Source: Methanobacteriota archaeon (lineage in GTDB: Archaea; Halobacteriota; Bog-38; Methanoflorentales; Methanoflorentaceae). Taken from it: DNA of 64,000 bases. The notes under the pieces are model-generated. The model had not been told where the DNA came from, did not search any database, and saw only the letters and a program-made list of their open reading frames with translations. Of this stretch, positions 1,570 to 7,010 are shown piece after piece; the stretch's first letter is position 1; each line of letters begins with the position of its first letter. The stretch covers positions 160,001 to 224,000 of the forward strand of contig CAVRAO010000008.1 in NCBI GenBank assembly GCA_963719035.1, in the 5' to 3' direction. Made by a program: the position numbers and the translations under genes.

Positions 1570-2265
1570 TTACTCTTCGAGCTCTTTATAACAGAACCAA
1601 AAGTCGTAATTATCATACATCTTGACACGTTCTTTGGCAGTCTTTTCGTCGGCTGGTGCAGGAATAAGGACTTTCTTCCCGATAAGCTCATTTTGAGGCC
1701 ATCCCGCGGGCATTGCGACCCCATATTTATCTGCGGTTTGGAGGGCTGTCACGGCCCTAAGTATTTCGTCCATATTTCTGCCGACTTCTTGTGGATAATA
1801 GATTATCAAACGAACGACGCTTTTAGGATCAACGATGAATACTGCGCGCACGGTATTTGACGCCTTACCCGGGTGAATCATTCCCAGCATCGAAGCGACC
1901 TTACCCGTATCAGCAATTATCGGGAACGGAATTTCAACGTCCATGTTCTGTTGGATCCACTCGGTCCACTTCATGTGCGAGATGACTTGATCAATGGACA
2001 GTCCAATGAGTTTGCAGTCTAGCTTCTTAAACTGGTCATACCGTTTGGCGAAGGCCACAAACTCGGTCGTGCACACCGGCGTAAAATCTGCAGGGTGACT
2101 GAAAAGCACGAACCACTTGCCGCTAAAAGCATCAGGCAGCGTCATCTTGCCGTGGGTCGTTTGGACTTCGATTTGCGGGAATTTGTCACCGATTAACGGC
2201 ATTCCTGGCGCAGCTGGTGCGCTTTTTGCTGCGCTCATTCCAGCGCTCGCGGTACTCGATTGCAT
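1570..2265 (-). CDS. Peroxiredoxin (archaeal Prx6/AhpC type)
   Basis: [15 protein letters not shown] peroxidatic motif, [10 protein letters not shown]-terminal DFWFC. Start codon uncertain. Confidence 0.92.
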
Positions 2266-2889
2266 ACAATCCGATTTCAAAGCGCGCATATATATACATT
2301 ATACAAAACCGTGAGCAGCGCGAGCCAAATCATGAAGCGAAAGAAACGTTGCACCTCACTACATGCACGAGCAGCTTCCCATTTGTGTGAGAGAGATGGG
2401 GAGGAGCGACCTGTGAGAGTTATCAAACGAAAAAAAGTCTTTGAAGTGTCCGACGTGTCCGGTCGTGCAATGTTGCACGCCCTTGGAGCAATCACTACAT
2501 GTTCGGTTCGCTGCGTTCAGGATACGTTCCAACGTTTTTTTAAACAGCCCGTGCCCAAGAGCGCGCCTTCGGGCTTTTTCTTGGTCCTTTGCCCAGTCTA
2601 GCCCGCGGCTGAAGCGAAAAGAGCGTTCTTTGGCGTTAACGGCGTGCTGGTGAGTTTGTCCACGCGCACTTCTAAGGAGAGAAGCGACTCGTCGACAAGC
2701 CGAACCGTCTGGTATTGTCCGTGTCGAGCGGCGCCACTAAAAACAAGTTTAAGAAGCGCTCAATCTGGCAATTTGCGGGTAATTCACTAATTAACAGCAT
2801 CAAAACGTTTTTATACCTTAGAAAAAGATTAATTACAGCACAGATGAATAGCGAAAGCTCTTATCCGTGCTACGTAAAGGAGATGAATC

Positions 2890-3468
2890 ATGAAAAAAAT
2901 AGCCATTTCTCTATTGGTACTGGCTCTTGTGGCTGCATTTTCAGCGACGGGCGTAGTGTCAGCGGCAACCTGTGCTGCAACGACGACTGCCTGTCCATCG
3001 ACCACGAGCGCTCAGTGCACCAGCTGCGTCACGTCAACGTGCTGCTGCTGTCCGTGCCCGGTAGTAACGTGCTGTCCAGTAGTCACGACCTGTGTCGTCA
3101 CCAAGTGCTGTGAAGTCAAGACTGAAGTCAAGGCAGCAGCCTGGGTACACCCACCAATCAAGGCAGCTGCTGGCGCAGTCGCAACGGATGGCGCCGCCGC
3201 AACCACTGGCGGACAAGCTGTCAACCAACAGATCGCGCAAAGCAACACCGCCAACGCCGCCATTAACGGCGATAACAACATTGTCACCTTCAACCAAGGG
3301 AACATCGCTGGCCAAATCGCAGTTCCGGTACAAATCGACATCAAGGACATAACGATCAACCCGGCCTTGGCGTGGAACGGTGGACAGATTGGCGACCGCA
3401 CCAACAGCAATAACGAAGAAGAAGTCGTAGTCGTAGTACCACCCGCGGCACTACCCGTGGCGCCCTAA
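2890..3468 (+). CDS. Secreted Cys/Thr-rich protein with Gln/Asn-rich chaplin/curlin-like C-terminus (copy 1)
   Basis: SD AAGGAG; signal peptide MKKIAISLLVLALVAAFSATGVVSA; 14 Cys in ~50 aa (TCCCCPCPVVTCC); Q/N-rich region; terminator follows. Confidence 0.8.
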   Translation: MKKIAISLLVLALVAAFSATGVVSAATCAATTTACPSTTSAQCTSCVTSTCCCCPCPVVTCCPVVTTCVVTKCCEVKTEVKAAAWVHPPIKAAAGAVATDGAAATTGGQAVNQQIAQSNTANAAINGDNNIVTFNQGNIAGQIAVPVQIDIKDITINPALAWNGGQIGDRTNSNNEEEVVVVVPPAALPVAP

Positions 3469-3489
3469 AACGTTAGTTGATTTCGATTT

Positions 3490-3520
3490 AAGCCAGGGAT
3501 AACCTGGCTTCCTTTTTTTT
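3490..3520 (+). terminator. Hairpin plus U-tract terminator
   Basis: AAGCCAGG-gataa-CCTGGCTT then T8. Confidence 0.75.
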
Positions 3521-3775
3521 ACTATTATTGCAGTTAGCTCTGCTTTGATGAGCAGTTGACAAGCGTTGCCGTAGCGGCTTGTGCCGTTTAACGAGAGACA
3601 TTTACGTCAGCTTTAAATGCCTGGGCGTCCAAAACCCCTTGAATTTATCTCGCCCTACGATCACGGAGGGGCACGAGCACCGCAGCAGCCTCACGTAAGA
3701 GAGGAGCTGCGTTAAAAGCGGTTAAAGGGATCTCACGCAGCGTATTAAGAAAGCGTATTAAGCCGACAAGAAGGG

Positions 3776-5074
3776 GTGAAGGGAACGTTGGAAAACCGAA
3801 CGAAAGCGCCGTACTCGGACCAACAAAAATATCCCTCACGCGGCGAAGCAAGGCTGTTCCCTAACGTTCAGTTTATTTATGAGCTTGTCTTAGCGCAGCT
3901 CGAGCTGCATTCTCTCAGTGCTGCTTTTGAGATGGATGATGAGCTTTCAGGCGTAACACTGCGCAACGCCGGAGACGATCAGCGACTAAAAAGGCGGCTC
4001 GCATATTTTCAGACGGTCAACGGAGAGCACACCGACTACTTCTACATTTCACGAAAAAATAGGACGCGATCGGTCAATCAGTATCTGACTCACTGGATCT
4101 ACCCCTACAAGGGTAAGTTCCATCCACAGATGATCAGAGCAGCGCTCAACATTATCGGAATGGAACCGGGAGAAACGGTCTTAGACCCCTTCGTCGGAAG
4201 CGGAACGACGGCACTTGAAGCGCAGTTGCTCGGTGTTAACTGCGTTGGCTTTGATGCATCGCCACTGTGCGTCCTCCAAAGCAGGGTCAAGACTGCGTCA
4301 CATGAAGCCATCAAGGAAATAAGAGACCAATGTGAAGCGCTTATGGCACTCAACCAGGCAGAAATGGCATTGGACGGAAAGGCTCTGAACCCTTTTACAT
4401 CAATTGCTGATCAAAGGGTTCAAGATTTCTTTCGATTGGCAAAGCTCGTCGCGCTGAGCGACAGCGTTCGGCGTCGAAAAGACTCATCGATGGCATTTGG
4501 CTCACGTACAAGATTAATGACGAAGTCGATTATGGATTATGATCAAATACGAACAGAACTCAAACTCTCACTGGGACGCGCAACGATCGAACAAGGGGAC
4601 GCACGCGCGCTGCTCTTACGCGATGAAAGCATCGACGGTATCATCACGTCCCCGCCTTATGCCATAGCACTTGATTATATCAAGAACGATGCTCACGCGC
4701 TTGAGGCCCTCGGACTGGACATACGTGAGATGCGCGAGCAGTTCGTCGGTTTGCGAGGTCCAATGAATGACCGGGTAGAGCTCTATGATGAGGACCTGAA
4801 GAAGAGTTTGGATGAGATGATGCGAGTGCTGAAGCCGAACAGATATGCGTTTATCGTTATCGGAAATGCCGTTTACAAGGGACGGACACTCGAATCAGTC
4901 GAGCTCATAGTCAAACATGCAAACAAGATAGGATTGCGTCTCACAAATAGGATCAACAAGACTATCTTTGGCCTCTACAACGTGATGCGAAGCGAAACAG
5001 TTTTAATCTTCAAAAAGGATAAAGACTGTAACAACACAGATGACGGGAAAAAGCCCCGCTCTGTGTTAAGTTAA
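3776..5074 (+). CDS. Orphan DNA methyltransferase (amino-MTase, SPPY type)
   Basis: THWIYPYKGKFHPQM, motif I DPFVGSGTT, motif IV TSPPY; no adjacent restriction endonuclease recognised. Confidence 0.85.
   Translation: MKGTLENRTKAPYSDQQKYPSRGEARLFPNVQFIYELVLAQLELHSLSAAFEMDDELSGVTLRNAGDDQRLKRRLAYFQTVNGEHTDYFYISRKNRTRSVNQYLTHWIYPYKGKFHPQMIRAALNIIGMEPGETVLDPFVGSGTTALEAQLLGVNCVGFDASPLCVLQSRVKTASHEAIKEIRDQCEALMALNQAEMALDGKALNPFTSIADQRVQDFFRLAKLVALSDSVRRRKDSSMAFGSRTRLMTKSIMDYDQIRTELKLSLGRATIEQGDARALLLRDESIDGIITSPPYAIALDYIKNDAHALEALGLDIREMREQFVGLRGPMNDRVELYDEDLKKSLDEMMRVLKPNRYAFIVIGNAVYKGRTLESVELIVKHANKIGLRLTNRINKTIFGLYNVMRSETVLIFKKDKDCNNTDDGKKPRSVLS
4979..5029 (+). repeat. 51-bp imperfect direct repeat, left copy (inside MTase 3' end)
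   Basis: 43/51 identical to 5789..5839; encodes NVMRSETVLIFKKDKDC. Confidence 0.8.
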
Positions 5075-5085
5075 GGAGATGAATC

Positions 5086-5646
5086 ATGATGAAGAAAATA
5101 GCCATTTCTCTATTGGTACTAGCTCTTGTGGCTGCATTTTCAGCGACGGGCGTAGTGTCAGCGGCAACCTGTGCTGCAACGACGACTGCCTGTCCATCGA
5201 CCACGAGCGCTCAGTGCACCAGCTGCGTCACGTCAACGTGCTGCTGCTGTCCGTGCCCGGTAGTAACGTGCTGTCCAGTAGTCACGACCTGTGTCGTCAC
5301 CAAGTGCTGTGAAGTCAAGACTGAAGTCAAGGCAGCAGCCTGGGTACACCCACCAATCAAGGCAGCTGCTGGCGCAGTCGCAACGGATGGCGCCGCCGCA
5401 ACCACTGGCGGACAAGCTGTCAACCAACAGATCACGCAAAGCAACACAGCCAACGTCGCCATTGACGGCGACAACAACGCTGTCGAAATCAACCAAGGGA
5501 ACATCGCTGGCCAAATCGCAGTTCCGATAAAAATCGACATCAAGGACATAACGATCAACCCGGCCTTGGCGTGGAACGGTGGACAGATTGGCGACCGCAC
5601 CGACAGCAACAACGAAGTAGAGGTCTTAGAAATCGGAGACGGCTGA
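5086..5646 (+). CDS. Secreted Cys/Thr-rich protein with chaplin/curlin-like C-terminus (copy 2)
   Basis: Paralog of 2890..3468; first ~115 aa identical, Q/N region variant, different tail. Confidence 0.8.
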   Translation: MMKKIAISLLVLALVAAFSATGVVSAATCAATTTACPSTTSAQCTSCVTSTCCCCPCPVVTCCPVVTTCVVTKCCEVKTEVKAAAWVHPPIKAAAGAVATDGAAATTGGQAVNQQITQSNTANVAIDGDNNAVEINQGNIAGQIAVPIKIDIKDITINPALAWNGGQIGDRTDSNNEVEVLEIGDG

Positions 5647-5669
5647 TAAAGCGTTAGTTGAATAGATTT

Positions 5670-5699
5670 AAGCCAGGAATAACCTGGCTTCCTTTTTTT
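5670..5699 (+). terminator. Hairpin plus U-tract terminator
   Basis: AAGCCAGG-aataa-CCTGGCTT then T7. Confidence 0.75.
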
Positions 5700-5788
5700 A
5701 TATTGTTGTAGTTAGCTCTGCTTTTGTTATCAGTTTTAAACGTTGCCGAAGCGGCTTATGCCGCTAACTATGTTAAAAAACAACAAAA

Positions 5789-5845
5789 AACGTAATGCAA
5801 AGGGAAAAAGTTTTAATCTTCAAGAAGGATGAAGAGTGCACTTAA
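5789..5845 (+). repeat. 51-bp direct repeat, right copy (displaced MTase C-terminus with stop)
   Basis: Reads NVMQREKVLIFKKDEECT* in one frame; preceded by the A-rich tract AAAAAACAACAAAAAA. Confidence 0.8.
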
Positions 5846-5863: not shown

Positions 5864-6172
5864 ATGCGAGCACTTATCGTGTACCCGTGGCAGGTGGAAG
5901 AATTTATCCAGTGGTTAGAGCCGGACGTTTCGAGATGGCCGATTGACAACGTGAAGGCAGCACTGACCAAAGTGTCCTATGAAGAGCTCATTAAGCTTCA
6001 CGTGGTTCCAGCGCTTTCCAGGTACGACGCGCTCAGATGGTTTGAAGATGGCAGGCTCGTTGGCAGTAAAAACAACGGGTCTCAAGAGATCTTAAATAAC
6101 TTTAAGGACTACCGCTTCAACGGCTTGTTCTACTCGGGTCTGTTCGACACCGAGGGCGAACCGGATTGGTGA
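5864..6172 (+). CDS. Hypothetical protein
   Basis: 102-aa ATG ORF with protein-like composition; no recognised motif. Confidence 0.45.
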   Translation: MRALIVYPWQVEEFIQWLEPDVSRWPIDNVKAALTKVSYEELIKLHVVPALSRYDALRWFEDGRLVGSKNNGSQEILNNFKDYRFNGLFYSGLFDTEGEPDW

Positions 6173-6224: not shown

Positions 6225-6689
6225 TTATTTCCTGAGCGTTTCTAAAGTCTGTTTGACGGCGTCAACATGACCGCCAACCTTTACTTTTCGCCACTCGTGC
6301 GCCAGCTTCCCTTGTGGAGTGATCAGAAACGTGCTACGTTCAATGCCGTAATATTCCCGTCCGTACATGCGTTTTAGTTTCCAGACGCCATATTTTTCCG
6401 CCACTTCGTGATCTTCGTCACTCAGCAGCAACACGCCAAGCTTGTGTTTTTCAGCGAATTTCTGATGACTGGCAGGCGAATCCGGGCTAATCCCGATGAC
6501 TACTGCGTTGTGCTTCGCAAAGTCTGGGAGTTGTTCGCTAAACTCTATCGCCTCTCGTGTGCAGCCACTTGTGTTATCTTTAGGGTAGAAGTAAAGAACA
6601 ATCCATTTGCCCGTAAAATCGCTTAAACATTGTTGCTTGCCTGTGCGATCGGGGAGGCAGAACAAAGGCACTTCAGAACCGATTTCCAT
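6225..6689 (-). CDS. bcp: Thioredoxin-dependent thiol peroxidase (BCP/PrxQ)
   Basis: VLYFYPKDNTSGCTREA, GISPD, YGIERSTFLI; start trimmed to MEIGSEVP. Confidence 0.9.
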   Translation of the reverse strand: MEIGSEVPLFCLPDRTGKQQCLSDFTGKWIVLYFYPKDNTSGCTREAIEFSEQLPDFAKHNAVVIGISPDSPASHQKFAEKHKLGVLLLSDEDHEVAEKYGVWKLKRMYGREYYGIERSTFLITPQGKLAHEWRKVKVGGHVDAVKQTLETLRK

Positions 6690-7010
6690 TTTACACCTCA
6701 AAACCACTGCTCGCTCTGTTTGCGAACAACGCTTTACGCATGAATATAGGGGTATCATAACCTTCATAAGAATTACGTGCCTCCTGTCCTTTTTCAAACA
6801 GCGTAAGCATGTGTTTTAGTGTTCCGCTAACGGTTCAATCGATGCGGTGCCAAGCGTCTGAGGTAGTTTTAGCTCGTTCTAAGCGAAGGAACGACTTATA
6901 AATGTTTGTGGCAGCCTAAGACAGTCACGTTCGTATTCGACAGCATATAACTGAGCTATATATGAAAAACACTTATTGCGTTGTGACAATCGTTACAAGC
7001 GTGAAGACTT

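Follow-up and report, generated by a model that had tools for sequence, protein, structure and literature searches.

A genus-restricted archaeal family of putatively secreted Cys-rich proteins with a possibly self-associating Q/N-rich domain

Two neighbouring genes of a Methanobacteriota archaeon (Halobacteriota; Bog-38; Methanoflorentales; Methanoflorentaceae) encode small Cys-rich proteins that belong to a real, unannotated orphan family restricted to the genus of the host. Both genes lie on the forward strand of a stretch of 64,000 nucleotides (contig CAVRAO010000008.1 of assembly GCA_963719035.1, positions 160,001 to 224,000), the whole of which is referred to here as the window, copy 1 at 2890..3468 and copy 2 at 5086..5646. 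Each protein joins a signal peptide and a Cys-rich module to a linker and a domain rich in Gln and Asn (Q/N), and is read here, tentatively and as a possible rather than a probable function, as a secreted, self-associating protein of the cell envelope or extracellular matrix, in which the Cys module would cross-link the assembly or bind metal. The assembly contains a match to McrA (E 4.8e-68), and the host is therefore a methanogen-type archaeon, as had been supposed in a preliminary description of the window made from its letters.

The Cys-rich proteins and their family

Copy 1 encodes a protein of 192 amino acids, in which codons 1-25 (2890-2964) specify the signal peptide, residues 26-77 (2965-3120) a Cys/Thr/Val/Pro module with 14 Cys, residues 78-112 (3121-3225) an Ala/Gly/Pro linker, residues 113-172 (3226-3405) a Q/N-rich beta domain with alternating polar and hydrophobic residues, and residues 173-192 (3406-3465) a variable tail unlike that of copy 2. 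The open reading frame (ORF) of copy 2 has 186 codons for amino acids, or 185 from a second ATG at 5089, which gives the same MKK start as in copy 1; its signal (5089-5163), Cys module (5164-5319), linker (5320-5424), and Q/N domain (5425-5604) follow in the same order and end in a distinct tail (5605-5643). The two proteins are 93% identical across 182 residues, and Cys makes up 14 of the 52 residues of the module (27%), in CC, CxC, and CCCC runs, all of it within residues 26-77. Moreover, the N-terminus of both, with MKK, a hydrophobic core, and VSA followed by A or Q, has the look of a Sec-type signal, and neither sequence displays a visible membrane anchor or lipobox, so that the proteins look secreted. 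The preliminary description had recognised this layout, and the letters that it quoted for the Cys-rich segment of about 50 residues and for the Q/N-rich segment occur exactly so in the ORFs.

Two other interpretations of this layout were rejected. Anchoring as a lipoprotein or through a PGF-CTERM sequence does not fit proteins that appear to have no lipobox and no C-terminal hydrophobic helix, and a precursor of a ribosomally synthesized and post-translationally modified peptide (RiPP) or lanthipeptide does not agree with a leader of the Sec type and a locus with no maturation enzyme.

Relatives of the pair are few and nameless. A word-indexed search of 5.8 billion clusters returned 21 proteins, an exhaustive phmmer search of 1.84 billion representatives returned 14 relatives at E<=0.001 (69-226 amino acids), and a profile search returned 46 relatives of the Cys-rich protein. 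The relatives found all lack Pfam domains and informative names; where a source gave a name, it was 'hypothetical protein' or, in one case, an evident mis-annotation. In the set of species genomes searched, where the whole class consists of one order and one family with 24 genomes, many of them incomplete, the family occurs in 11 of the 17 other genomes of the host genus and in none of the six of the sister genus, and a scan of one genome per species found one locus outside the host's own genome, in a metagenome-assembled Methanomicrobia archaeon. Pfam and NCBIfam scans of both proteins of the pair gave nothing but noise and a sub-threshold match to PF20585 (E 0.019), a Pfam scan of 29 family members gave scattered single matches only, and the best hit of a profile search of solved structures in the PDB (E 1.1) fell on the signal peptide; the confident match to a globular or S-layer domain that would speak against the amyloid proposal of the preliminary description has thus been found in none of these three resources. 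For residues 100-180, the best score in the ESM Atlas was 0.80, a level that shuffled sequences reach one-third of the time. A literature search found no paper on this Cys-rich family, which is no proof of absence.

Contigs matching the genes are present in four metatranscriptome libraries from three studies. They span copy 1 from 2876 to 3465 and cover 5171-5363 of copy 2, a part nearly identical to copy 1, and one library (X1) contributes two contigs with 1 and 0 mismatches. Since these are assembled contigs and not raw reads, they speak for presence only and not for level, strand, or transcript ends; none lies on the methyltransferase gene between the copies, on the intergenic parts, or on a 102-amino-acid ORF downstream, and they are uninformative on the expression of these. 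The family is probably expressed. The 46 profile relatives, the purifying selection on the N-terminal part described below, and the RNA-library contigs argue together that the pair does not consist of chance ORFs, and both homologs and candidate transcripts, on the absence of which the amyloid proposal of the preliminary description would have fallen, are present.

Selection acts unequally along the protein. Residues 1-28 do not vary among 15 homologs whose identity elsewhere is 56-91%, and the motif VVTKCCE is invariant in 19 sequences. The ratio of nonsynonymous to synonymous divergence (dN/dS) is 0.02-0.42 in the signal and Cys module, 0.35-1.07 in the linker, and 0.27-1.3 in the Q/N domain, values to be read with the caveat that divergent pairs are saturated and substitution counts are small. 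In other genomes, dS of the signal and Cys module reaches 0.2-1.2 with a very low dN; thus, this part seems to be under constraint at the protein level and not to be kept uniform by gene conversion alone. The signal and Cys module are also the part common across the family, and what follows them varies: the Q/N domain tolerates large insertions between its conserved strands, two members (P0018 and P0020) carry unrelated Gly/Ser/Thr-rich tails after the Cys module, and short forms of 94-134 amino acids have nothing after it, two of them encoded in the host's own genome (contigs C2 and C10). The preliminary description had stressed the C-terminus; instead, the element that is most constrained and that defines the family is the Cys module, as opposed to the presumed amyloid part.

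The number of Cys in the family ranges from 8 to 17, odd as well as even, always in the N-terminal module, and in most members 12-17 are packed into about 52 residues. Such variable, odd and even numbers speak against a fixed disulfide knot within one molecule and favour chemistry between molecules or with metals.

Several features of individual members stand apart. The invariance of residues 1-28 (2890-2973 in the window, and its counterparts in the homologs) is unusual, as signal peptides usually drift. A variant in genome G010 (L037 3480-3857) has at least three tandem 17-residue Thr/Ser/Cys units, PTTTSAQCTSCQKTSAC, after the signal. The two short paralogs of the host's own genome (C10, L004 656-1770; C2, L003 1441-1779) are nearly identical, with 94 and 112 amino acids, and consist of a Cys module and a Trp-rich end; a similar short ORF fragment lies near both, which suggests a repeated element.

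The prominence of the Cys module can also be explained by a secreted metallothionein-like protein that would capture or buffer trace or toxic metals (Ni, Co, Zn, Fe, Cu, or Hg) outside the cell, and whose variable C-terminal part would only tether or space the module. Such a role would be in keeping with the strong conservation of the module and of VVTKCCE, with its occurrence alone in the short forms or ahead of unrelated tails in P0018 and P0020, and with a Cys content of more than a quarter arranged in CC, CxC, and CCCC runs. In addition, the C10 paralog lies directly after genes for a PadR regulator and a Cys/His-rich DUF5320 protein and beside an ABC ATPase gene, a neighbourhood that hints at metal or thiol stress control. 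The state of the thiols may point the same way. Proteins of the DsbD_TM/CcdA type are usually reductive, and DsbB and VKOR usually oxidative; the host's own genome (91% complete) has three genes of the former type and no detectable DsbB or VKOR, which, together with anoxia, would in our reading favour reduced thiols. However, metallothionein and other metal-binding families match none of the 29 members at E<=1, the Val/Thr/Pro-rich, His-free module is unlike known metallothioneins, the main locus has no metal transporter, and the PadR/DUF5320 neighbourhood belongs to one paralog only, so that a metal-binding function of this kind seems somewhat unlikely.

Predicted self-association of the Q/N-rich domain

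Modelling lends some support to self-assembly of the Q/N domain. Modelled in four copies, residues 100-176 reached a score of 0.43, and the best of three controls 0.00; the mark of 0.42, which 20 of 30 solved same-chain pairs and 1 of 23 solved single chains reached in calibration, is a rough guide here, as it was set with two copies, whereas the run described here used four copies and its own alignment. Three four-copy runs agreed in at least 92% of their contacts, with a partner predicted local distance difference test score (pLDDT) of at least 63, and the contacts of lowest error join residue i to i or to i+/-1 (120:120, 116:116, 132:132) over residues 103-157. Contacts of this sort would form a parallel in-register sheet, which is the geometry expected of an amyloid-like stack and agrees, by a narrow pass, with the stacking that the preliminary description had envisaged. 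The profile search of the PDB found no solved relative for the predictor to recall. As a single chain, the protein was predicted by AlphaFold2 (AF2) to be mostly unstructured, with a mean pLDDT of 48.8 from 29 sequences and of 51.7 from 49 sequences, the latter run showing one long hairpin (strands 112-126 and 131-145, turn at GDNN) at low confidence. An unstructured monomer with one hairpin would fit a domain that folds upon assembly.

In the mechanism proposed, the protein would be exported by the Sec pathway, cleaved behind VSA, and kept outside the cell as a mature protein that we estimate at about 17 kDa. Its Q/N domain (about residues 103-157) would pair with the Q/N domain of its neighbours in a parallel in-register beta arrangement with amyloid-like stacking, and the self-associating proteins would build or decorate a layer of the envelope or matrix. 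By thiol chemistry, whether disulfides, metal-thiolate bridges, or a combination of the two, the Cys/Thr/Val module would hold this assembly together or fasten it to the cell, and its Thr/Ser runs are candidate O-glycosylation sites. The gene structure, the family with its range, the selection pattern, the duplication, and the occurrence of matching contigs in RNA libraries are established, whereas secretion, location, self-assembly, and cross-linking are inferred. The narrower proposal of an undescribed, genus-restricted archaeal functional amyloid, whose Q/N stacking would be locked by disulfide or metal-thiolate bridges of the Cys module, must be considered unlikely; an amyloid-like nature is plausible, though not proven, and would reside in that half of the protein which is less conserved.

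Several observations weigh against a self-associating envelope or matrix protein. The four-copy score clears the mark only narrowly, the controls were unrelated partner proteins and not composition-matched ones, predictors often place copies of low-complexity chains side by side, and the confidence of both AF2 monomers is low. All that is said of assembly derives from a model, and there is no observation of a fibre, a sheath, or an amyloid. Moreover, the Q/N domain is less constrained than the Cys module and is replaced or absent in some members, and this weak constraint, together with its insertions and replacement, means that assembly may not be the core function of the family. The lack of detectable DsbB or VKOR in an organism of anoxic habitat makes enzyme-made disulfides doubtful, and carry-over of DNA is possible in RNA libraries, whose contigs are therefore no proof of transcription.

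The preliminary description had seen a likeness of the C-terminus to the chaplins of Streptomyces and to the curlins, which did not survive comparison of profiles. A six-frame search of the host's own genome with ChpA-C (PF03777) at E<=1 gave a sole, unrelated and sub-threshold hit on contig C2, and Curlin_rpt (PF07012), which scores above its cut-off in an E. coli control, had no match in that genome at E<=10; each of the two profiles matched 0 of 29 family members at E<=1. When the family alignment was compared by hhalign with an alignment of 13 curlin sequences (E. coli CsgA and CsgB, and CsgA homologs), the probability was 2.2%. No internal repeat emerged when the C-terminal domain was aligned with itself, the best off-diagonal match having E 0.83 over 11 columns, and the domain contains no Cys. 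The likeness is thus a matter of composition and beta-strand pattern, and not one of homology.

Chaplins are, like the proteins described here, small and secreted, with a short, beta-prone domain of hydrophobic and polar residues and several paralogs per genome, and a stretch of the form 'Q..VPV.I' is alike by eye only. However, chaplin domains carry a conserved Cys pair within the amyloid domain, which is absent here, where all Cys fall within residues 26-77; chaplins have no counterpart of the Cys-rich N-terminal module, and the host here is an archaeon. Curli, for their part, share secretion and a Q/N/G-rich beta domain, and are thought to assemble by the parallel in-register stacking that is also predicted for the Q/N domain described here. 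Nevertheless, curlin is built of tandem imperfect repeats and the C-terminal domain here is not, and CsgA and CsgB share only 31% identity in the curlin alignment, whereas the two copies are recent duplicates with 93% identity. A dedicated export operon is a further mark of curli; the neighbours of the copies encode a methyltransferase and peroxidases, and the csgE/F/G families were not searched for.

Tandem duplication and the genomic neighbourhood

The pair arose by a duplication that left clear traces in the DNA. The segments 2864-3586 and 5060-5763 are 90.6% identical, and a 47-nucleotide remnant of a methyltransferase 3' end (5789..5835, forward strand), 87% identical to 4979-5025, lies just before the 102-amino-acid ORF, which argues that a unit of Cys gene and methyltransferase was duplicated in tandem and then suffered a deletion of about 1.4 kb. 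In the simplest history, the unit would have doubled and the 1.4 kb lost would have been those of the second methyltransferase. Between the copies, dS is 0.034 in the signal and Cys module, 0 in the linker, and 0.067 in the Q/N part, and the duplication is thus recent (dS <=0.07). The first 115 codons differ by 2 synonymous substitutions and by no amino-acid change; the 12 amino-acid changes are all found from codon 116 onwards, which bears out the earlier remark that the copies differ chiefly in the amyloid-like part. In terms of the proposed mechanism, divergence after a recent tandem duplication would have been limited to the C-terminal domain and the tail, which would be exposed. It was also observed that the final codons of the methyltransferase ORF that stayed intact (about 5031-5074) share homology, at 76% identity, with the 5' leader ahead of the Cys gene (2835-2889); thus, the junction of the duplication has rewritten the C-terminus of the methyltransferase.

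Duplication has recurred in the genus. The Cys-gene pair of genome G017 is 100% identical, a shorter Cys/Thr-rich form adjoins the long form in G019 and G023, and G019 has three further long-form copies elsewhere in the genome, without the neighbours of the main locus. Recurrent tandem duplication, together with changes confined to codons from 116 onwards, suits an abundant, surface-exposed protein. The idea of a major and a minor subunit, which the preliminary description had raised for the pair, looks weak, as dS does not exceed 0.067, the G017 pair is identical, and CsgA and CsgB differ far more; the pair does not show the pattern of old major and minor subunits.

A conserved leader ahead of a variable C-terminus would also be expected of a secreted competition or defence factor, such as a Cys-rich antimicrobial, an adhesin-like protein, or a virus-receptor decoy, with its C-terminus in an arms race. 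The dN/dS of the linker and Q/N domain is close to 1 in close pairs, the family is multi-copy and repeatedly duplicated, ORFs that resemble integrases by sequence lie near several loci, and 2 of the 29 members weakly match the pectate-lyase-like adhesive domain PF20585 (best E 0.0039, sub-threshold). However, this last match stays below threshold and is restricted to those two members, substitutions are too few to establish positive selection, and the neighbourhood contains no gene for a toxin, a bacteriocin, or maturation, all of which renders this role very improbable.

Each copy has its own translation and termination signals, and the strength of the Shine-Dalgarno sequence and the separate terminators count in favour of the reading preferred here. 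Upstream of copy 1, a TATA-like TTTTTATA at 2808..2815 (forward strand), preceded by an A-rich stretch at 2801-2807 and read from the sequence, is a possible archaeal promoter, and a Shine-Dalgarno-like AAGGAGAT at 2877..2884 (forward strand) is followed by the ATG 5 nucleotides downstream. The same AAGGAGAT occurs before copy 2 at 5073..5080 (forward strand), where it abuts the methyltransferase stop (5072-5074), and copy 2 starts 11 nucleotides past the stop codon of that ORF. A terminator-like hairpin with a T-run follows each gene on the same strand, at 3490..3520 after copy 1 (8 pairs, 5 of them GC) and at 5670..5699 after copy 2 (an 8-bp hairpin, 97% identical to that of copy 1); in narrower limits, these GC-rich elements occupy 3490-3510 and 5670-5690. 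The preliminary description was therefore right to assign a Shine-Dalgarno sequence and a terminator to each gene, but copy 2 lacks a free upstream region, because the methyltransferase stop abuts its Shine-Dalgarno sequence.

The methyltransferase ORF (3776..5074, forward strand; 432 amino acids), which is part of the duplicated unit, matches N6_N4_Mtase and UPF0020 and has an S-adenosylmethionine (SAM) motif that precedes an SPPY motif. Beyond copy 2 lies the 102-amino-acid ORF (5864..6172, forward strand), which has no signal peptide or family match and always comes after the methyltransferase in the genus. The locus is flanked by two genes on the reverse strand that are conserved in the genus: upstream, a peroxiredoxin with a 1-Cys C-terminal domain (1570..2289; AhpC-TSA and 1-cysPrx_C) and, downstream, a thiol peroxidase with an AhpC-TSA domain (6225..6797), which we take to be of the Bcp type. 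Two genes with rhodanese domains lie upstream of the peroxiredoxin, one for a double-rhodanese protein cut by the start of the window and one for a single rhodanese, so that the surroundings of the locus (3-2289 and 6225-6797) form a sulfur/redox cluster.

In relatives, the order is Cys gene or genes, methyltransferase, and 102-amino-acid ORF. Genome G023 has the full order of peroxiredoxin, Cys gene or genes, methyltransferase, 102-amino-acid ORF, and AhpC-TSA peroxidase; G019 has the same order, its peroxiredoxin flank being an ORF read by eye and unscanned; G017 has the downstream half only; and G021 has the downstream half and a partial frame read as a peroxiredoxin. Since these four genomes belong to one genus, the order of the locus may simply be inherited, with no functional link.

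This setting raises a further explanation, in which the protein would act outside the cell as a sacrificial thiol or redox buffer and, with the flanking peroxidases, guard an O2-sensitive methanogen during oxygen pulses. The two thiol peroxidases that frame the locus, the rhodanese genes upstream, the full order in G023, and the very high thiol content of the protein would all suit such a function. However, the flanking peroxidase ORFs have no signal peptide and would thus work in a different compartment, the synteny is confined to a single genus and may be inherited, and the other copies in G019 have no peroxidase neighbours; consequently, a redox buffer is distinctly improbable.

The methyltransferase was also considered as a part of the same system and rejected, because genome G003 of the sister genus has the methyltransferase and no Cys gene. 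In G018 the gene is broken into four pieces, and G009, G014, and G015 gave matches to no more than its last 65 residues or so. The methyltransferase thus has the look of an independent, decaying module, either restriction-modification-like or that of an orphan methylase. In G003, the methyltransferase is followed by a 219-amino-acid ORF with no Pfam match (L045 7955-10027).

Other features were noted around the Cys loci. Pairs of ORFs of about 180 amino acids, which resemble tyrosine recombinases or integrases by sequence, lie within a few kb of Cys loci in G017, G018, G019, and G023 (in L027, L028, L030, L031, and L032). Three of the loci in relatives also have nearby a gene for a secreted protein of the lipobox type, likewise named from its sequence, whose start is rich in Ser, Pro, and Thr. 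On contig C2, near 785,300 (L003 ~3000-3225), a run of more than 200 A, read as poly-Lys or poly-Phe in all frames, ends an O-methyltransferase-like ORF and probably reflects an artefact of the assembly or a stretch that was masked.

Archaeal sheath proteins and the significance of the family

CC, CCP, and CxC runs in a short, low-complexity segment rich in Pro, Thr, and Val are typical of covalent cross-linkers or of thiolate-cluster binders. The Cys module shares such runs with keratin-associated proteins, Cys-rich spore-coat proteins, and metallothioneins, a likeness by analogy only: there is no sequence-family match, and the protein described here comes from an anaerobic archaeon, is apparently secreted, and is fused to a Q/N domain.

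Closer in biology are the SH and MspA sheath proteins of Methanospirillum and Methanothrix, which are, like the family described here, of a secreted methanogen envelope type with several paralogs. Passages of the published accounts describe amyloid-like cross-beta contacts between SH monomers and propose disulfides between the rings (PMC6242892, PMC10593813, PMC11576556), with sizes of 40.6 and 60.9 kDa for SH/MspA (PMC6242892) and two Cys in the SH monomer of M. hungatei (PMC10593813). The sheath proteins combine a signal peptide with a large two-sheet amyloid core; the Cys-rich proteins also begin with a signal-like N-terminus, but, with about 17 kDa for the estimated mature form and 14 Cys, differ in size and in Cys number, and the confidence of their models is too low for folds to be compared. 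The exhaustive search with the Cys-rich protein found only its 14 short relatives. In the main text of PMC11576556, the strings 'Methanocell' and 'Methanoflor' have 0 occurrences.

The family has no name or domain annotation in the databases searched, yet its contigs appear in RNA libraries of three studies, and its members are small, cheap to express, and directly testable. If the Cys module acts as a secreted metal or redox buffer, archaea would here be using metallothionein-like chemistry outside the cell, which would be unusual. If the narrower proposal of a functional amyloid holds, the envelope or matrix of these cells would contain a polymer unrelated to chaplins, curli, and the known archaeal sheath proteins; and if the proteins self-assemble, archaea would have a third kind of extracellular amyloid-like polymer, unrelated to the others and present in environmental methanogens. 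The covering of the cell bears on the way in which such organisms stick to particles and to partners, tolerate pulses of oxygen, take up trace metals, and resist viruses.

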